Below, piece by piece: positions 8,217-24,875 of a stretch of 28,280 bases of DNA. Under the pieces are notes generated by a model. It was not told the origin of the DNA, did no database searches, and saw only the letters and a list, made by a program, of their open reading frames with translations. A program made the translations under genes and the position numbers. Position 1 is the stretch's first letter. Each line of letters opens with the position of its first letter. Source of the stretch: Eremomyces bilateralis CBS 781.70 (Eukaryota). The stretch is from the NCBI GenBank assembly GCA_010015585.1, contig ML975151.1. The stretch is one strand, 5' to 3'.

Positions 8217-10042
8217 CTAGTGTGGCTGCACGCCGACATACTCGCCGGGCGCCGGGAACTTCCCCGTCAGCTCCGCAATGAGATACCCGGCGAGCTTCAC
8301 GGGGTCAGGGCCCGGCTTCGAGTCGGTGATTGGCGCCGCGGTAGTGTTCGAAGCACCGGTCGCGAAGCAGACGCGCCCGTCGATGAACTGGCGCTGCTCG
8401 GCGTTGATGCCGGGGGTGGTCCAGAAGACATTTTTTGGGTCGTATTTGGTCTTGATGCCGGAGAGGCGGTTGTAGTTATCGAGGCCCCAGAAGTTCTGCT
8501 TCCAGTTCGGGTCGTCGGCCCAGCCCTAGGAATGGTGAGTTAGTGGTGTGAATGTGAGTGTGGAGGGGAACGTACCTCGTTGATATATCCGCCCATATCC
8601 GGCGCGAACGCGCGTGCGGCGTCCGCGTTGCCCAGTTCGCCCAGGTTGATGGTCGTCATGAGCGCCGTGGCCTTCCTCCAGCCTGGATGGGCGGAGGTCT
8701 GCTTGCCGATATTTGTGGTGGTGCCGGGTTTGGGAGTGGTCATGATCATATTCCATAAGGCTTGGGTTTTGATGACGCCCAGAAGGGCGGGGTCCTTCAT
8801 GTGGTCGGGTCCGAACAGCACGCTGTCGGTCGGGACCCAGCCAAAACCGCGCGGGGCGGGCGGGTCGTCAGCGTCGTGACGTTTGGCTTTGGCGTTGTAA
8901 TCCGGTCCGGTGGGGGCGGCGAGCCAGGATCGCGCGCCGTATGTGGTGTCGTAGTATTCCTTGAAGTTTGCGTAGACGAATGGCCGGGACTGGAACGGGA
9001 GGACGCCCTCGTAGGACTGCATTTTCTCGAGCACCGGAATCCAAGCGTTGTAAGCGTCGGTAACGTTCGAAAGCTCACCAACGTGGACGCTGGTACCTCG
9101 GATGTATCCCGGTGATCCGAAGAAGTAGCCCGAGATACCGCTGGCCTGGATGTCCGGCAGTGCGGCCCAGAGGGCTTGCGAAGCCTTTTCGAGACCCTCG
9201 CTATTGACATCCGGAGTCGTCGAGTTGAGCCAGAAGTTAATGCCGGTGACGGGTACGTCCGGGTAGACCTTCATGGTGGCCTCGACGACCACGCCGAAGC
9301 CGCCCCCGCCGCCTCGGATGGCCCAGAAGAGATCGGAATTAGAGACGGAGTTGACAACGCGAAGCTTGCCATCCGCAGTGACGACCTTTGCCTCGAGCCA
9401 CTGGTCGACGCCCAGGCCAAACTGGTTGGCGAGCGGGCTATGGCCGGCGGTCTGACCCCATCCGCCGGCCGGGGCGACGGCACCGTGATTTCCAGCGACC
9501 GCAACCATTCCAACAGCAGAAAGAGCATCGTTCAACGGCTGGCCCCCATAGCTAGCGCCAAACGTTACGACGGCTTCCTTGCATGAGTCCTTGAGGGCTT
9601 TGGGGGTTTCGTCGCTACGGATGGGGGTGACGCCTGCAGTTTTAGCTTTGAAGCTCGACGAGAGTCTGATGCCCGTGAGGAGGGAGACGTCGAGGAGAAG
9701 ACCGGAAGAGCTGGTGCTACGGCACAAAAAGTCGTGTCCGGAAGTGATGACCGTCAATCGGATGTTGTACTTGGTCGCGAACTTCACGGCATTCACAACA
9801 TCTGTGGAAGTTCGCGGACGATAGCGGTAATCGGGGGCGGGATCAGTCCCGAACGCTGAGGGGTCGATGGCCGTGACGCCTGGAAGCGCTTGCTGCCAGA
9901 CGCTCTTCGCCGGGTAGTCCGTATCTGTAGCGATCTTGTGGCATCCGCTGGCTACGGTAGCGGCGGCGGCCTGGCGTTTGAGGGGACCAAGGGCGACAGC
10001 GCTGGCCGCCAGCTGAATTACGAGAAAAACGAGTGACTTCAT
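8217..10042 (-). CDS. Secreted FAD-linked oxidoreductase, berberine-bridge-enzyme (BBE)/VAO-like; exons 10042-8576 and 8525-8217; 591 aa
   Basis: Signal peptide MKSLVFLVIQLAASAVA, FAD-binding motifs SGHDFLCRS, GGWGQTAGHSP, GLGVDQWLEAKVVTADG and DLFWAIRGGGG. A 50-bp intron at 8526-8575 (GTACGT...CTAAC...TAG) joins GYINE to a BBE C-terminal motif (WKQNFWGLDNYNRLSGIKTKYDPKNVFW). Confidence 0.93.
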
Positions 10043-11957
10043 GTCTGGGAACCAGACGGCAAAAAAAAATAACTAAAAAAAATATAGCGAGCGACTGCAA
10101 ATCATAAAGGAGGGGATGAAGCGCGCCGTGTGACAGTTCTTGAACGGGAGTCAGACAATATATCAATTACTGGCGATCGGAGTCGGCCCGCAATGACCAG
10201 TCAGCGAAGGTCGCTTAGAAGAAAGCTTTCTAATAACTAGTATATTGACTTCTAGATGCCCATGTGGCATGTGCCTAGTAATCTTGCCCAAAGCGATATC
10301 GTTACCACGACGCTGGAATTCCGACCAATGATTACAAGTGACCAAGCCAGAAACTCCCAACGCAATCCTGGAAACAAACAAAGGAAATGAGCGCGTCGAA
10401 GATAATGAACGAAATGTTGAAGGCTAGAAGCGCATACGGTATGTAGTACGTACCTACTTGCGCGGAGAGGGTTTAGTACCAACTCCCAACCTCTGGGGGT
10501 TCCTAACTAGGCAGAATCCTACGCGCCACAGAAGGCAGTTCAGTCATTTTAGTAGCTTTAGTTCAACGTACTATTACCAAGCTGGCGGATAGAGCGAGAG
10601 CAAGCATTTATACGAGCAACGGGATGCATACTAGTATACTACGTAGTATGCCCAGCTCACCCGCGGCCATAGCTCCCCTTACCGTATCGTTGACTCGTGG
10701 AGGCATCCGCGACTTCCCTCATCCGACAGCATAGCACCATAAAGAGAGAGCATCAGTTGGCAATTGGTTGTGATAACTGATAGCAGATCGAGCAAAGTTG
10801 CAGTTAAACATCAACACTATGTCGATGAACTGAAATCACCACTGCGTCGGGTCGATTAGACAGGAAAGACCTGGAAGTTGATCGAGCAGCAGGCTGACCG
10901 CCATGATCCCACCGACCGACCCCAGGAACTTGTATCGACTATCGTCCACTGTCCAAGAGTTGAAGCTTGAAGCCCTAAACGGATCTCGGATGTAATTTTA
11001 ACTTCAGACGGAACCCTTGGCTGATGGATCATGGATCATGGATGGCTTGACAAGTTGACATCAAATTTGCGATCAGGTCCATGTCTCCTGCACAGGGAAG
11101 TCACCTGCACACGCATGCAACGCTGCTGACGGTGGCGTTTGTGGCAGTGCGCAAAGGCACTCCGGGGTCCCCGCAGGCACCTCCGCCAACTACCACTCCC
11201 TATTTCGACTCCCTAGCCTGCTACCTAGTGCCTAACATCTTATCTCCATGTCAAAATTGTTGGCGAACGGCCAACGGCCAACGATCAAATCGATAGCTTT
11301 GCGTGGCTGCGTCGCTTATTTAGTTCGCTCCTTCGACGATTCGAACTGCATAAGTCATAAATGCAAGAAATATCCTGGGATGTGAGGGTGTCGTACACTC
11401 AGGGGACGGGGATGCCACGCGAGCGGGCGTGGAGGTTATGAGGAGGGATCCCCAACATCGGTCCGTGGAGGGTGAAGACTGAAGAGTGGGGAACTGAAGA
11501 TGGTCATCAACGAGGGTCGAGGCTCAAGGGATTGAGAATTTTCCTTAGTTAGGCAGCTATTCCGCACTTACATACGGACACGTGAGAGACAGGGAATCTG
11601 ATTCAGGAGTTAAAAGTCCCATTCCGGATGTGACGAAGAAGGGGAAGCTAACTGCTAACTGCTGGGGAAAGTCTTCAAGCGGCTCAAGGAGGTAAGGACA
11701 TGAGTTGATGCGAACGGGAGGACATTAACGGAGTAGGTACCTATCATCTGGACTATTGATATCGGACGAACAATGTACACGCTAAACATGAGGACTATTG
11801 AAGCATCCTATTGTTAGATTTCGTGCTCGCTACCGAGACAACGTTTGAGTAGTACCTATGCAACAACAGCCATTCGTAAGTAAACCAGCGTACTGCGGTA
11901 CATCCATATCCCACATCCCTCACGCCACGTTGGGTGAAATCAGACAACAACCGTGTC

Positions 11958-14774: not shown

Positions 14775-15953
14775 CGCGGAAGAATCAGAGGCAGAAGGCG
14801 AAGGGTGATGGCGGGTTGAACCCTTTTAAGTATGTTGGACGAGGAAACGTGCCGATCACGATACGGCGAAAGGAGGTGGAAAACGAGGGTTTAAACTAGG
14901 TGATGCTGATCATTGTGAAGAGAAGAAGGAAATCGATGTGTGAGGTGGAGAAAGGAAGGTGGGTTGATGAAGAGGAAGATGTGGAAGCTGAAGAGTGAAG
15001 GGAGATAAAGTGGTGGTGGAATTATTGATTGACGTCCAGAGCATCGCATCGCAACTCCAATCTGCACCTGGCGATGGATGAGTGATGGATCAATGGAATG
15101 ATGGAAATAGAGAGAGCACTTGACCAGATCCAGTTAGCCGTCATCCGGCTCCGTCTTTAATTCCTTATCGATCCTTAGTCTTTGCGTAGTAATTCCCTTA
15201 TTACTGATCGCCATGTAAATACCGTATAGATCTACGGAATATCCCCGAGCCCCATGTCCAAGACAAAGTCTCTCGACAAATATCCTTCTCTCACTCCTCA
15301 CCAAGGCCATTAATCCAGCAATTCATATATTCATCTGCAAGTGAATAGTCCCGTAAGTACATTTCGTTCAGTGCGCCATGCATATGCCCCAGATTTGGCA
15401 TAGATTTGCGCTAGCTGTGTCATCTATCCGTCAACCGCATTGAGTCCTTCCACCCTCAGTTCCATGTCGAACCGGTGTGCAATGTTTCGTGCCCGCCGCT
15501 TCGTAGGGCCTCTCGGCGTCCTGCGATGCTTTTTTTCCTGCACCTTCGTACTTCGTTCGTTCATGTCCGCTTCCAGTACCGTTGTCTCATGTACCACCGC
15601 TGCCGGACGTTGGGTCCGTCGCTGAAGCGTCGGTTGGGTCCAAGGAGTCAACGACGCTCCCAAGGAGAGATCCGGCCAGGGGTGGCGATGCATGCTGCCG
15701 TTGAAGCGTGCCTTGCTACCTCCAATTCCTCCAACGCGAAGGATTGGGTCGGTATCGTGACCTCCACGTCCGCCTCGTTTGTGAACCGTCAGTTGATTGG
15801 TGCCGTCCGCCGGCGGTTAAGTGCGGAGAGAATCTCGCCTCTCCTCCTCGTTCCCTCTCCATGACTTCGCAGCATCGTCCACCCATTCGAGCACTGCGCC
15901 TGCGCGTCGCCCGCGAACTCCCTCTACCTCTTCAAATCCCACATGACACCACC

Positions 15954-17097
15954 ATGGCCACCGACATTCCCCCAGATGGTACCGTCCCCCTCCTCCTTTC
16001 CAACCCCTCAACTAACCCCCCTCAAAGCCCCCCTCCACATATCCCTCTCCCTCCGCATCCCCCAACCCCACATCTACGCCCAGCTCCTCGACCATCTCCG
16101 CTCTCACCCCCACCCCCTCGCCCCCCTGGCCCTCCGCGCCCTCGCCTGGGCCGCCGTCGCGCCCCGCCCCCTCGCCCTCAACGAACTCGCCTGCGGCCTC
16201 GCCGTCGACCCCGCCCACCCCGCCGTCCTCTCCAATGCCTGGGCCGACGTCTCACAGATCCTGCGCCTGGCAACGCGGCTCCTCGAGCAGCGCCACGGCG
16301 CCGTTCACCTCGCCCACGAATCCCTCCGCGATTTCCTACCCGCGTATCTAGCCCGCCATAGCAGTGGTAGTGATGGTGGCGCCGGGGAGCCCGCGATCGA
16401 CCCCCACGAGGACCTAGCCTCTGCCTGCCTCACCTACCTAACCATGCCCCCGTTCCGCACGCCCTGCGTCTCCCCCACCGAACTCCACAACCGCCTCCGC
16501 ACCTACCCCTTTCTCTCCTACGCCTCCCAGCACTGGTTCCGCCACGCGCAGCGCGTCCGCGGCCGCTTCTGCGGCCCCTTCGAAGGCCTGATCCGCCTCG
16601 CCCTGGTGCCCGGATCCGATGGGAGTAACTTCCCCACCAGCTGGATGCAGGCAGCGCGGCCATTAATCGAGGAGCTCGGGGTGACGCACATCGCGCAGCT
16701 GCCGGCGGACGATAATCGATGGATGCTGAACTTGTTGGCGAAGGAGGGATCGATGCGGGTGTTGAATTACTTTTTGGCGGGGGGGATGACGAGGGAGATG
16801 AGGGAGGGAGTAGGGGGGTGGAGTCCGTTGAGGGTGGCGGCGCGGTATGGGCGGGTGGAGGTGGTGGAGGAGTTGGTGGGTGCGGGGGCGTATCGGGTGG
16901 AGGGGGAAAGGGAGGAGGCGTTGGGGCTTGCGTGTCAGAGTGGGTCAGTGGAGATGCTGAGGTTGTTATTGGCGGCGGGGGATCTGAATGGGGGTTCGGA
17001 GACGGCGCCTGGAGTAGTGACGGTGGAGGGGTGGGATCGTGAGATCACGAGGGAGTTGGTGGCCGCTGGTGGGAGGATATACCCGGTTGTTCAGTGA
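15954..17097 (+). CDS. Winged-helix/helical domain + ankyrin-repeat protein resembling the C-terminal part of fungal NACHT-ANK (NLR-like) proteins; exons 15954-15978 and 16028-17097; 364 aa
   Basis: ATG in strong context (accaccATGG). A 49-bp intron at 15979-16027 (GTACCG...ACTAAC...AAG) joins two ORF-track frames. Post-NACHT motifs: ALAWAAVAPRPLALNELACGLAV, VHLAHESLRDFL, HEDLASACLTYL, YPFLSYASQHWFRHA. Ankyrin-like SPLRVAARYGRVEVVEELVGAGA and ALGLACQSGSVEMLRLLL. An alternative in-frame ATG lies at 15861. Confidence 0.8.
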
Positions 17098-17458
17098 ATT
17101 TGGATATTGGGATGGTTAACACAAAAGTACTGGCGTGGTAGTCTAATATTCAAGTTTGGTCGTTTGTATCAAGATCGCTCCTTAGAATTGTAGTGAAGGA
17201 AAATGTAAAGGGGTCGTCTTAATAAAGCAGGGGTCTGTCTTGGAGTTAAGGTCGAATTGTAGTGCGAAGACGCTGAGCCAGGAGATATTCGATGCCAATC
17301 CAGCTCAGGGATCGAGCGTTGCGATTCAACCCCTCCCCTGAGTTCTTATATACTTCGATTTTGTTAACAGTTCGGGGTATCACTGCCTTTATCGTACACA
17401 TACAGGTAGACACGGATCCACGCCCAATGAGAACCCCCACCCAAACTTCGAACCAAGT

Positions 17459-18555
17459 CTACTGCACCCCCGCCGCCTTCAACCTCCCCTCCAACTCCTT
17501 CATCACCTCCCCGTCCTTCCCCTGATTCATCAACCCCCCCTTCTCCATCATCTCCTTCATCTGTCCCCACACCCTCTGCCTCTCCTGCCGCAACGCCTCG
17601 ATCCGCCGATCATACACGAATGTCTGGATGCCCACCCGCCCGCCGTTGTAGTGCTTGAACGTGATCTCCGGCGCCAGGCTCTGCATCGCACGCCACGGGT
17701 ACAGGAAGCCGCCTTTGCCGAGCATGCTGATCACGCCGATCAGGGAGGGGAGCATGTCGGTGCGGGGAGAGGAGCGGTCGGAGAGGTAGGCGCGGAGGGG
17801 GGTGCGCGCGCGGGAGTTTTCGGTGCGGAGCTGGGGGGTATTAACGTTTGCTATCAATCATTGGGGTTGGGTTACGTACTGCGTCCAGGACGCCGTCTAG
17901 GTCCTTCGGATATCGAGTGATGAAGCCGCGGAGCATCTTCGTGGCGTTCCTCGTGGTTGCTGGTAATGGCTTCATCGATGCTTTGTTGTAGGTGTAAATA
18001 CTATGCTGCCAGTAGAGCGTTGCCGGCGGCTTGTATCGCCCAGGGTTTGTTCTCGGGCGGGGTCGTTGCGTCGCATTTTCCAACGGCACTATCTCATGTC
18101 CTTCACAGAGTCAGCATGATCGGTCTACCATCCCAATTCCGTGCCTTACCCGTCCGCCGTTTCTGCTTCTTCCTCGCAATGGCCGGCACGTCCACCAAAT
18201 CCGCCTTCCCCTCCTCTCTCAACTGCTGCTCCCTCGGACTCCATATCCGCTCCGTCGCACCCAACCTTGCGAGCTGCGTGTTCTCCGCCGGGTCGCCCGA
18301 CCCCGCGCCCTGATGCACGACAGTGAGCCCTGCGCGCCGCTGGATGGCGACGATGGGGTGGCCGAGCTTCTTCCAGGCGTCGTGGTTCGACTGGCCGCGT
18401 GTCGGCTGAATGTGCGGGACACCCAGGTCTTCCATCGTGGCGAGGGGGTGCATGGATACCTCGGCGGCGCGGAGGAGGCGGAGGGCGGGTCGACGGAAAC
18501 CTTTGAGGCGGACGGGGGTCCTTTTTTGAAGGATGGGGGAGGGTTTGAACATCAT
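17459..18555 (-). CDS. Putative nuclear-encoded mitochondrial protein homologous to the N-terminal domain of fungal mitochondrial ribosomal protein Rps3/uS3m; exons 18555-18150, 18100-17880, 17830-17459; 332 aa
   Basis: Two 49-bp introns (18101-18149 GTAAGG...GCTGAC...AAG; 17831-17879 GTACGT...GTTAAT...CAG) link three ORF-track ORFs in frame. The N-terminus is basic and free of acidic residues (MMFKPSPILQKRTPVRLKGFRRPALRLLR). GRYKPPATLYWQHSIYTYNKASMKPLP and EITFKHYNGGRVGIQTFVYDRR resemble conserved mt-Rps3 N-terminal blocks. The gene structure is more secure than the product call. Confidence 0.72.
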
Positions 18556-18982
18556 TTTGGGGGAGTTGGGGGAGATTAGGAGGAGATAGTGTCCCAGAGG
18601 GCTTCGGCCTTAGCCGGTAGCTTTAATTCCGTCAATGGCTTCGTTTTGGAAGGGATCGTGTATGGTCAACTTGGAATATTTTGATATGATGTTCTTGAAA
18701 TGGAATTGAAGATTAAGTCGTGATACTTTCTGCCAAGACTGATGGACGTTGCAGGGATGGCATTTGATAGAAGCTTTGATATCAGGACTTGGGGGACTAC
18801 AAAGGACTACCGTTCTTAACCATTTCTCCGATTCAGTCTCAAATTCTTGAAAATCGGCGTTCCCATTGAATAATATACCAAAAGAAGCCATATGGTTCAT
18901 AGAGAGAGATAAACCAATCTCCCTTTGTTCCTCGAACGACCATCACAAGCTCAGAGCAAAGACACCACCGCGAACTGCCAAC

Positions 18983-19645
18983 ATGAACACCTCCGCCGAT
19001 ACCCTTCAACAAACCGCTGAACAGCCCCCTCAAACCTCAAACACAATGCCCCCAACACTCGACGAGAATGAGCGACTATCAATGCTCCCGACCCAACGCC
19101 TAATGACCGGTTCCTTCGCCGCCGCGGCGTCTGGTTTTCTCCTAGGAACTTTCAAAGGCGGCCAGGAAGCCGGCTACGTCTTCCGGGCTGAGAACGCCCA
19201 CCGCCTCCCCACGTCGCAGCGCGGTTGGTTTTTCTACCACAAGACCAAGAACTACCAAGCGGCGTACGGCGGCGTGCGGGAGGGGATCAAGATGGGGGTC
19301 AAGCTGGGGGGTTGGACCGCCGCATTCTTGTTGGCCGAGCAGGCGGTCGACTCGTTGCGGCCGGATGAGGGGAAGGATGCGTTGAGTACTGTGGTGGCTG
19401 CGACGGGTACAACTGGTGCTTTTAGTCTTTGGAGTACGTGGATCACGTTGCCGTATAGATTGGTGGCAGAGTACTGACAGATATTAGACCGGTTCCCGGC
19501 AGCCACTGCTGCCCGTACGGCGAGACTCGGAATTGGCATTGGTATATGCTATGGATTACTGCAAGATGCACTCGGCTTAGTACGTGGGCGTAAGATTGGT
19601 TATATCGAGGACATCCGGACTTTGAGGGAGTCGTCAAAGTGGTAG
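18983..19645 (+). CDS. Conserved fungal membrane protein, Tim17/Tim22/Tim23-like family; exons 18983-19433 and 19488-19645; 202 aa
   Basis: Conserved motif FRAENAHRLPTSQRGWFFYHKTKNY with flanking Gly-rich hydrophobic helices. A 54-bp intron at 19434-19487 (GTACGT...CTGAC...TAG) gives FSLW-N-RFPAATAARTA...YGLLQDAL. Alternative start at 19046. Confidence 0.82.
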
Positions 19646-21884: not shown

Positions 21885-22988
21885 TCAAAACCCGAGCCTG
21901 GCCCCGTCCTCGGCCAATTTCAGAACCGGCTTCATCCGTGCCGGCTGCACACGATCCCACAGCGAACCCAACCCCTCTTTCTCCCCCTTCTCCTGTTCCC
22001 TCCGGAAATACTCCTCCACCGTCCGGATCCGGTTCGGATGGATCTCGTCCAGCAACTGATAATCGCGGCGGATGACCCCCGTGTTGTTTCCGGAGTCCCG
22101 GAATAGGTTCCAAAAGCCCGTGAAGGTTTGCTGGCGCGTCAGGCTGGCCGGGTCCTTTGGATCGGCGTGGATGGCGCTACTCAACTGTGCCCCATCACCG
22201 CCGAAGGGGGAGGTTTTCCAGTATTCTTCGAGAGAGATGTCGATGAACTGTGCGGGATGGCCGCTCACTTTCTCGAAGGCTGCGGCAACGTCCTCATACT
22301 GGATGTGGTCGATGGCAACTTCCAGATCCATTCCGTTGGCGCGCTCTTGGTTGTCGAAGAGCCAGCGGACATAATGGGCGCAATCATCCAACGAGACGTG
22401 GGGGACGGCCCCATCGCCCAGCGGGAGCCTCCACGTCAGCACCCCGTCTTCCATCGTCGGCATCATGGGTGTCCCATACGCGATCGCCATCTCAATATAC
22501 GGCCCACTCGTAAACACCGCCGCCCCCATCCGCCCCCGATTCTCCCGATTCTGCCACAACATCCACTCTCCCACCCTCCCCTTCCCATCATAATGCCCCG
22601 TCCGATACTTCGCATCATACCCTCCCTTCTTCGTCCCATAGTCCAGATTTCCATACACGAAAAACTTCACCCCCTCGTCGATCGCCAGCTCGTACGCCCG
22701 CATCGCCCAGAACATCTCGCCCTTTTCGCCGGTGGTGAACCCATCGATGTTGACGTACGCGCCCGCGCACCCGCGGAACCCGGCGCGTAGGCGGGATTCG
22801 TTGGCGAAGGAGCCGACGACGAGCTCGACGTTGCCGAGCGCTTGCAGGTCTTGGGCGCGCTTGGAGGTGATGTCGCGGGTGAGGACGCGGACTTGGTATT
22901 TCCCGTCTTCGACCAGGCCGCGGACGATGGGTATGCCCTGCGCCCCGGTGCCGCCGATGACGAAGATTTTTGGAACGGATGAGGACAT
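21885..22988 (-). CDS. NmrA-like NAD(P)-binding Rossmann-fold protein, 367 aa
   Basis: KIFVIGGTGAQG dinucleotide-binding motif, VRVLTRD, GHYDGKGRVGEW, LPLGDGAVPHVSLDDCAHYVRWLFD; intronless. Confidence 0.92.
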   Translation of the reverse strand: MSSSVPKIFVIGGTGAQGIPIVRGLVEDGKYQVRVLTRDITSKRAQDLQALGNVELVVGSFANESRLRAGFRGCAGAYVNIDGFTTGEKGEMFWAMRAYELAIDEGVKFFVYGNLDYGTKKGGYDAKYRTGHYDGKGRVGEWMLWQNRENRGRMGAAVFTSGPYIEMAIAYGTPMMPTMEDGVLTWRLPLGDGAVPHVSLDDCAHYVRWLFDNQERANGMDLEVAIDHIQYEDVAAAFEKVSGHPAQFIDISLEEYWKTSPFGGDGAQLSSAIHADPKDPASLTRQQTFTGFWNLFRDSGNNTGVIRRDYQLLDEIHPNRIRTVEEYFRREQEKGEKEGLGSLWDRVQPARMKPVLKLAEDGARLGF

Positions 22989-23865
22989 GGTGCTTGTTGG
23001 AAGGCAGCTGCGATTAGGATGTGGACTGTAGTGTTCTCGATCTTGAATAGTTCTTCCAGTTATCTAGCTGCAGCGACTCTTGTGTTTATATAGACGATTT
23101 CCACCCCTTTGATTACTATCGTCTACATTGTCTAGGCAATTCCTTAGCTTTTTTTCCATATCTCGTGCATCCGCGGCGCCTAGCTATTTTAACAGTATAG
23201 TAATCCGTCACAGGGAAAGTCGACTCAAGTTCACGTGCCAGTGATACCAGTGGTACCAGTGGTACTACTGCTATGACCAGTGCATGTTCAGCTCGCCACA
23301 TCAACGCCATTTCGATTCCTTGGTGCCTAGGCAACTCCCTTCTAGTTCATTGAGCATTCCGATAAGGTTTTCCTTGGCCCTATTCTCAACAAAATGCGGG
23401 CCGAGAAGCTTCGCATGATGACTGAGCGCAGTACAGGAGCTGTATATTAATCACGACAGCTGTGGCGACATTGCATGGTGGCACGAAAGCTTGGGGTCGA
23501 ATTGGTTGAAAATGTAATCATATGGCTGACTAGCTCAGAGAATCTATGGTTTCTATCAATATGGGCATGTTTACAGTAAGTTTACGGTGACACGCTGAAT
23601 GATCCCTCGCTAGGACATTTGCCCACTCGAATTAGCCAGTGCAAGTAGTAGAACGATACTGGATCACCATCCATGCATTTGGTACCGTAGATATATCCAC
23701 TCGACATCAGTCAATCCATTCACCAGCTGTTGTCTCCGCTAAGTAAAATGCTCATGAATTCAAAATGCACGCAAATCAAGGGGTATCATAAAACCAGCTT
23801 CCCAACCCCATCCTAACCCATACTCCAACCCCCAGCCCAACCCCATCCTAACCCAGTCCCCTTCC

Positions 23866-24750
23866 TCAACTCCCCACCCACGCACCCGATCGTTTATACT
23901 CCCTCAACACTTCCGCCGCCCCCCCCAACTCCTCCTCACTCAGCCACGTCCCGTCCGCCTCCCCGTACCCCACCCACTTGGCGAAGTAGAACATCATCCC
24001 GCCGATGTCCTGGTGCCGGAGGATGCGTTCGATTTCGTATTCGTCGGCGGGTGGGGGCGCAACGGCTTGGAGCATGGAGTATTTCCGCTTGGTGCTGTCG
24101 GGTGGTGGGGAGGAGGTGGAGAGCGAGGTGGAGGAGGGTTGATGGGGTCGGGTGAGTGGAGTGACGGCGCGGGACGGGGATTGTGATGTCGACGAGTTGA
24201 ATCGACTAGGTAACGCGAGATGCTGCCCTCCTTTGGTAGTGAGATCCTTTTTCCTGACCCCCGCTGGTTTCCCTCGCTTCTTCACTTTATTCGCCGAGCC
24301 ATTCACGACCGGCACAACGATATTCGAGCGTTTCTTCTTCGGATGCACGAACTCATCGCTCGACTCCCCATCCACCCGCGACGGCGCCGTCGTTACGATC
24401 CGGCTCTTCGGCGACCGTTTGCGCTTCTTCGGCGGGATGTCCTTCCCATTGACCTTGATGATCGGCGGCTCCTGTTCCGGGTGCTCGAAGCGCCAGTTCT
24501 CGAAGTCCTCGAGGTGCGCAGGGGAGACGTATTCGAGGATCGCGTCGACGGCGATGTGAAGTGGCGGGCCGATGAGGAGGTCGGCGGCGTCTTGCTCGTA
24601 GACGACGTAGATGCAGGGGCCGTCGGGGAGGCTGAGGCGGTCGTCGATGAAGTAGCGGGTGGTGGTGGGAGGGGTGGAGGAGGGGGAAAGGGTGATGGGG
24701 GGGATGTCGCTCCGCGGGATGTAGGTGATGGGGATGACGGCCTCAGTCAT
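23866..24750 (-). CDS. Chromodomain-containing protein with a single C-terminal chromodomain, 294 aa
   Basis: EYEIERILRHQ...FYFAKWVGYGEADGTWLSEEEL with the aromatic cage residues (Y, W, Y) intact. Basic NLS-like runs PPKKRKR and PKKKR. The first in-frame ATG is 24750; the ORF track start at 24765 is TTG. Confidence 0.88.
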   Translation of the reverse strand: MTEAVIPITYIPRSDIPPITLSPSSTPPTTTRYFIDDRLSLPDGPCIYVVYEQDAADLLIGPPLHIAVDAILEYVSPAHLEDFENWRFEHPEQEPPIIKVNGKDIPPKKRKRSPKSRIVTTAPSRVDGESSDEFVHPKKKRSNIVVPVVNGSANKVKKRGKPAGVRKKDLTTKGGQHLALPSRFNSSTSQSPSRAVTPLTRPHQPSSTSLSTSSPPPDSTKRKYSMLQAVAPPPADEYEIERILRHQDIGGMMFYFAKWVGYGEADGTWLSEEELGGAAEVLREYKRSGAWVGS

Positions 24751-24875
24751 GTGGAAGAGGTGCAATTGCGCTTCATCCGGAGACGCGTCGTCGCTCGTCG
24801 ATCGATTTCGTCGTAGTGTGCGGCGATAGATGGGGAGGGCGTTAAATGAGGTTATTTTGTTGTTTTAGAGCTAGA

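Follow-up and report, generated by a model that had tools for sequence, protein, structure and literature searches.

The window examined here, the whole stretch of 28,280 nucleotides that was analyzed, comes from Eremomyces bilateralis CBS 781.70, a fungus placed by a taxonomy look-up in the Dothideomycetes, order Eremomycetales. It contains a minus-strand gene of three exons (Table 1). Joining the exons by script yields a 999-nt coding sequence with a single terminal stop, a GC content of 63% and a GC3 of 82%. The encoded protein of 332 aa, here called P0004, has the sequence of the NCBI/UniRef entry 'hypothetical protein P152DRAFT_455212 [Eremomyces bilateralis CBS 781.70]'.

Table 1. Features of the P0004 gene, with positions numbered along the window.
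Feature	Position	Strand	Remarks
Exon 1	18555-18150	minus	ATG at 18555; residues 1-135 and first base of codon 136
Intron 1, 49 bp, phase 1	18149-18101	minus	GTAAGG...CTGAC...AAG
Exon 2	18100-17880	minus	residues 136-209
Intron 2, 49 bp, phase 0	17879-17831	minus	GTACGT...CAG
Exon 3	17830-17459	minus	residues 210-332 and TAG stop at 17461-17459
Conserved basic N-terminus, 30 residues	18466..18555	minus	family motif MFKPT..LQKR.E.RLRGFR.P..RILR
Block 1, residues 157-204	17895..18038	minus	homologous to fungal mitochondrial uS3m residues ~43-90
Block 2, residues 262-299	17561..17674	minus	weak in-register match to mitochondrial uS3m 'AE[IL]KHTN..I.LY.YNK'
Upstream stretch under the spliced contig	18556..18570	minus	end of the contig, not a mapped 5' end
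Likely 3' UTR	17100..17458	minus	covered by the spliced contig with no joint; overlaps the end of the convergent ankyrin-repeat ORF

The structure of the gene could be compared with assembled contigs from three of five listed sequencing runs, matching positions 17100-18900. In run X3, whose type is a guessed RNA and whose contigs indicate neither true ends nor strand, a single contig of 1496 nt omits exactly positions 17831-17879 and 49 nt at 18100-18149. Otherwise it is colinear with the window from 18570 to beyond 17100, passing through the stop codon without a further joint. A spliced mRNA would be expected to lack just these two GT..AG intervals, and, since the frame closes at TAG within unbroken contig sequence, no additional exon contributes a C-terminal domain. 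Contigs of the DNA-labelled runs X1 and X2, which may come from the window's own source sample, are unspliced and colinear with the window. The sequence-only reading of this DNA had joined three ORFs through two 49-bp introns into a GC-rich gene of 332 codons; the script-joined coding sequence agrees with P0004 letter for letter, the X3 contig is spliced in that manner, and it joins no extra exon before the stop. Furthermore, the base composition, the two GT..AG introns and neighbours that include kinesin, ankyrin-repeat and NmrA-like genes are those of a nuclear gene rather than of a gene in AT-rich mtDNA. The nuclear location and the splicing of the P0004 gene are firm.

Two neighbours lie close to the gene. 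An ORF on the plus strand (18851-19477) is divergent from it, about 280 bp from its start, and gives a weak match to the Tim17/Tim22/Tim23/Pmp24 family (E=1.8e-4, 22.2 bits, under the 32.7-bit cut-off); a second X3 contig starts at 18853. A bidirectional promoter may serve both genes, and both may be organelle-related. On the other side, a convergent plus-strand ORF with ankyrin repeats (15865-17097; Ank_2, E=3e-8) overlaps the stretch that follows the stop codon in the spliced contig. The 3' ends of the two genes probably overlap, and a contig does not separate the transcript of the P0004 gene from that of the ankyrin-repeat ORF. The other neighbours are ordinary nuclear genes, all on the minus strand (23866-24864, 3-1940, 8540-10072 and 21885-23063), with products listed as a chromo-domain ORF, a kinesin motor, a FAD_binding_4 oxidase and an NmrA-like protein.

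P0004 belongs to a small family of short proteins. An exhaustive phmmer search of 1.84 billion representative sequences returned 38 proteins at E<=1e-3, P0004 included, all of 92-350 aa. Names were looked up for 30 of the 37 other clusters and gave three species, Bathelium mastoideum (a MAG), Lepidopterella palustris and Lojkania enalia, a count whose bearing on taxonomic range is bounded by the fact that cluster names cover only members at 90% identity; the remaining looked-up clusters come from metagenome or read-archive assemblies. We take the three species to be Dothideomycetes, and the Lojkania enalia member comes from a species of the Pleosporales. A search with alignment A3 added five short soil contigs carrying close relatives of protein P0005, each a single intronless ORF of ~270-300 aa that stops soon past block 2, so that the two introns of E. 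bilateralis are not common to these relatives. All 10 pairs of soil relatives have dN/dS values of 0.26-0.33, which indicates that the family is under purifying selection. Branches in the family tree are long (median terminal length 0.65), and the Lepidopterella and Lojkania proteins group together at 99/97; the Lojkania protein is the longest-branched of the named members and has a degraded block 2. Judged from these comparisons, the family is fast-evolving yet under purifying selection (dN/dS ~0.3). A subgroup of three members (P0009, P0017 and P0021; support 100/99) has a long insertion between blocks 1 and 2 (columns 280-380 of the family alignment A1) and carries 'HVHEG' in place of the 'FVYDRR' of other members.

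The N-terminus of P0004 is basic, with 9 K+R and 0 D+E among residues 1-30, just as the presequence-like N-terminus of the sequence-only reading would have it. This is a property of the family, since 20 of the 21 motif-bearing members have 7-10 K+R and 0-2 D+E in this region. Of the 'targeting peptide' proposed on this ground, only the basic character stands; residues 1-30 show a family-wide conservation that exceeds what a simple cleavable presequence would need. The N-terminal extension, put at ~130 aa in the earlier reading, is real: family members have ~130-150 aa ahead of the part that resembles mitochondrial uS3m. The N-terminal 40 residues of this extension are without a detectable counterpart in mitochondrial uS3m, and the family N-terminus compared with the uS3m N-terminus gave no likeness (E=0.6).

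The part of P0004 that follows the extension resembles uS3m, the product of mitochondrial rps3. When P0004 by itself was compared with the PDB by phmmer, the Neurospora crassa 'ribosomal protein S5' (uS3m, 6yw5_CC) came first among three sequences at E<=10, with a marginal E of 0.099, P0004 residues 156-201 pairing with chain residues 46-91. Using instead A1, the profile of 27 family proteins, against the 177,635 PDB sequences, the same chain was matched at E=2.8e-8 (profile positions 84-162 on chain residues 40-117); the sole other match had E=0.21. That faint match, probably due to chance, is to the Tetrahymena ATP synthase subunit ATPTT8 (6ynx_n), through a stretch resembling 'W..S.Y.Y.NK..LK.LP'.

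A word-indexed search with the family alignment returned nine proteins, among them P0047, a protein of 418 aa whose match to N. crassa uS3m (E=5.9e-35) extends over both N- and C-parts. Searching with the C-domain of P0047 gave 643 relatives, including Exserohilum rostratum 'ribosomal protein S3' and Curvularia trifolii 'uS3m'; P0047 can therefore stand for the mtDNA-encoded uS3m of Pleosporales. The best 120 of the 643 are all of the mtDNA type, and a diverged nuclear C-half may sit among the others. The family profile A1 aligns with full-length P0047 at E=6e-8 (hhalign), and with A2, an alignment of 17 Pleosporales-type mitochondrial uS3m proteins, at E=7.1e-9 and probability 95.8, over 48 columns that place P0004 residues 157-204 on P0047 residues 43-90; the significant homology spans these 48 columns only, and it derives from the family profile, not from P0004 by itself. 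The real score was 69.1, against a maximum of 18.3 and a mean of 13.0 in 100 column shuffles. In the reverse direction, P0004 alone scored 15.2 bits on the profile of the mitochondrial N-domain. The likeness of block 1 to fungal mitochondrial Rps3, which had been noted in the sequence-only reading, is thus borne out as a significant profile match, and we consider that block 1 is real homology to fungal mitochondrial uS3m, as established through the family profile.

For block 2, which had been noted in the same reading, the outcome is mixed. The sub-alignments place '..ITFKHY....I..FVYD.R' of the family over 'AE[IL]KHTN..I.LY.YNK' of mitochondrial uS3m, in the expected register and in the same order relative to block 1, the nuclear family having an insertion of ~35 aa ahead of the block. 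By itself this match is weak and not significant (E=0.054, with 2 of 200 column shuffles attaining the real score), and its collinearity with block 1 adds some weight. These data also bear on whether the likeness has anything to do with ribosomes. The 48 columns could represent a shared short motif or convergence in a family of unrelated function, as might be argued from there being a single significant block, from the lack of a Pfam family or usable structural match, and from the similar motif faintly present in the Tetrahymena ATP synthase subunit. In the ESM Atlas the model of P0004 has a pLDDT of 0.37 and every structural row has TM<0.4, so that no usable match was obtained and the rows are meaningless. 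We nevertheless regard this explanation as very improbable, because three independent comparisons gave E values of 3e-8 to 7e-9 with a supporting shuffle control, the profile search works reciprocally, block 2 comes next in the correct order and register, and uS3m is, apart from the faint match, the only chain found in the whole PDB set.

The uS3m C-domain was searched for with a profile made from the conserved middle and C-terminal part of mitochondrial uS3m (P0047 residues 255-418). There was no real match in the six frames of the 28-kb window (best score -1.3 bits), in 47 family proteins (<=8.0 bits) or in the five related metagenome loci L001-L005 (<=3.2 bits). Pfam searches with the three exons, with P0004 (E<=10) and with each of the 27 aligned members found nothing of relevance, neither VAR1 (PF05316) nor Ribosomal_S3_C (PF00189), and a word-indexed search for longer proteins containing the exon 3 peptide returned P0004 itself only. 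The ORF stops 33 residues past block 2. The earlier statement that no S3 C-domain lies downstream holds, and it extends to the whole window. The homologous part of the nuclear family terminates at the first length-variable insertion of mitochondrial uS3m (A2 columns 201-400). Blocks 1 and 2 would correspond to most of the N-terminal domain of bacterial uS3, in which the strand completing the N-domain sits just ahead of the C-domain. With the composition, the introns and the block 1 homology described above, these results uphold the proposal of a nuclear, intron-containing gene for the N-part of uS3m, and we hold firmly, from comparison of the sequences, that the P0004 gene is a homologue of the N-part of Pezizomycotina mitochondrial uS3m, without the C-part. 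On mitochondrial uS3m itself Pfam VAR1 covers only the last ~165 residues, so that standard domain models detect only the C-half of the protein, and a gene for the N-half only would be left as a 'hypothetical protein' with no domain annotation.

A separate observation may concern the same variable region in mtDNA. In the mtDNA of Bipolaris sorokiniana two adjacent short ORFs are annotated as 'rps3' (399 bp) and 'rps5' (555 bp) (PMC7225605), and related Pleosporaceae have one uS3m ORF of 488-490 aa. The two ORFs may be one gene annotated as two halves, or may reflect a break at this region at the mtDNA level.

A gene for the N-domain only might simply be what is left of uS3m, if the mitoribosome in this lineage no longer has the C-domain. 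This has a precedent in Holozoa, where, according to PMC7326499, the uS3m C-domain has been 'completely deleted', and it would agree with the lack of a C-domain in every family member tested and with the searches of Franco et al., in which BLAST reportedly gave no nuclear rps3 counterpart in Dothideomycetes (PMC5626475). However, no part of fungal mitochondrial uS3m is better conserved than the C-domain, as seen in A2 and in the C-domain relatives, and PMC7560712 has the fungal mitoribosomes studied so far retaining an mRNA entry site made of uS3m, uS4m and uS5m. Moreover, failure to find a diverged C-half by sequence search is weak evidence, because even yeast Var1 escapes the Pleosporales uS3m profile (no match at E<=0.01). 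We therefore consider loss of the C-domain improbable.

The single ribosomal protein gene kept by most fungal mtDNAs is rps3. In the literature, rnl is described as intronless in Dothideomycetes and rps3 as free-standing in Pleosporales, and the mtDNAs of Zymoseptoria and Zasmidium as lacking rps3. More generally, rps3 is given as absent from some Dothideomycete mtDNAs, with negative BLAST searches for a nuclear counterpart, in three papers (PMC5626475, PMC6221350, PMC11167856), and Korovesi et al. 2018 are cited, in PMC8979003 and PMC11881002, on several fungi whose rps3 is either missing or nuclear.

Against this background, the nuclear gene could be a paralogue, a fragment retained from an old mtDNA-to-nucleus transfer and since given an accessory or altered function, for instance in assembly or as an additional mitoribosomal protein, while the mtDNA keeps a full-length uS3m. 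Pleosporales belong to the same class as E. bilateralis and have full-length mitochondrial uS3m with both N blocks (A2), and the nuclear family has a Pleosporales member in Lojkania enalia, so that a nuclear N-half and an intact mitochondrial gene may coexist in some lineages; this is also the chief argument against a split of uS3m. The force of this case is reduced by the branch of the Lojkania protein, the longest among the named members, and by its degraded block 2, as well as by some Pleosporales mitogenomes being reported without rps3 in PMC11167856. The family has also gained ~150 aa of new N-terminal sequence and the insertion before block 2, and P0004 is divergent from the mitochondrial profile, as its 15.2 bits indicate, all of which speaks for this reading. 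On the other hand, the uS3m-like blocks are exactly where purifying selection acts, long-term redundancy of one domain would be unusual, and the family is found in few named genomes (four species, counting E. bilateralis and the 30 clusters looked up). On balance we judge a paralogue to be unlikely, while giving it more weight than loss of the C-domain.

The explanation that we favor, tentatively and at somewhat below an even chance, is that uS3m has been split: the spliced nuclear gene of E. bilateralis would derive from a Pezizomycotina-type mitochondrial rps3, of which it keeps the 5' part, and encode the N-module of uS3m, the C-module being encoded separately. The family matches Pezizomycotina uS3m clearly, while the Pleosporales profile misses Var1, which points to transfer from mtDNA within this fungal lineage rather than to an ancient nuclear gene. 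P0004 would be synthesized in the cytosol and, as its basic N-terminus suggests, imported into mitochondria. By homology it would then join the small mitoribosomal subunit and sit in its head, at the mRNA entry, as the N-terminal part of uS3m does in N. crassa, where, according to PMC7560712, uS3m, uS4m and uS5m form the mRNA channel entry and an extension of uS3m joins the mRNA-loading platform. The rRNA-binding C-module would be supplied by a separate polypeptide, coming either from a shortened mtDNA rps3 or from a second nuclear gene too diverged to recognize. Extending this to a set of Dothideomycetes, in which uS3m would consist of an imported nuclear N-module of the P0004 family and a C-module encoded apart in mtDNA or nucleus, is a possibility that we hold with a little more reserve.

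If this is true, fungal mitoribosomes would have their first case of a split ribosomal protein, half of the gene having moved from mtDNA to the nucleus, and the question of the 'missing rps3' in Dothideomycete mitogenomes would gain its first starting point. The conserved nuclear N-half gene indicates that rps3 has, at least in part, been transferred to the nucleus in Dothideomycetes, and the P0004 family provides a concrete query with which to map the fate of the rest. Our literature searches found no description of a fungal nuclear gene for only the N-half of uS3m.

The closest known counterpart of P0004 is the fungal mitochondrial uS3m itself, represented by chain CC of 6YW5 and by Pleosporales rps3. 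The two are alike in block 1 (W-H-S-I-Y-x-Y-N-K...L-P...Y-x-N-M) and weakly alike in block 2 (..FKH....I..FVYD.R), and in uS3m both blocks stand in the same order within N-terminal residues 40-150. In contrast, the P0004 gene lies in the nucleus, with 63% GC and a pair of spliceosomal introns, and its protein lacks the entire middle and C-terminal part (the region of Pfam VAR1 and S3_C), while possessing the new extension of ~150 aa and the insertion of ~35 aa before block 2. Holozoan uS3m is likewise nuclear-encoded and consists of the N-domain only, as stated in PMC7326499, but no sequence match to P0004 was found, P0004 being hit by no Pfam family.

The feature typical of split uS3m, an N-domain polypeptide encoded apart from the C-domain, is present in P0004. 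In Tetrahymena thermophila, as described in PMC7326499, uS3m is formed by two nuclear N-domain proteins (mS92 and mS31) and an mtDNA-encoded C-domain protein (Ymf64/uS3m) that lends one strand to the N-domain, an arrangement that corresponds to the strand position given above for bacterial uS3. As in P0004, the nuclear N-domain is separate from the C-domain and the break falls inside or at the end of the N-domain; in Tetrahymena, however, the protein that carries the C-domain is known and cryo-EM shows every part, whereas for P0004 such a partner is hypothetical. Polytomella magna also has separate uS3m polypeptides, including a nuclear N-part, according to PMC9576764; there, in a green alga and in an independent event, the protein is made of two nuclear fragments, and both have been shown structurally. 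If the split is confirmed, the P0004 family would offer an independent fungal parallel to the split uS3m of ciliates and green algae, and might represent a step on the way to the N-domain-only uS3m found in animals.
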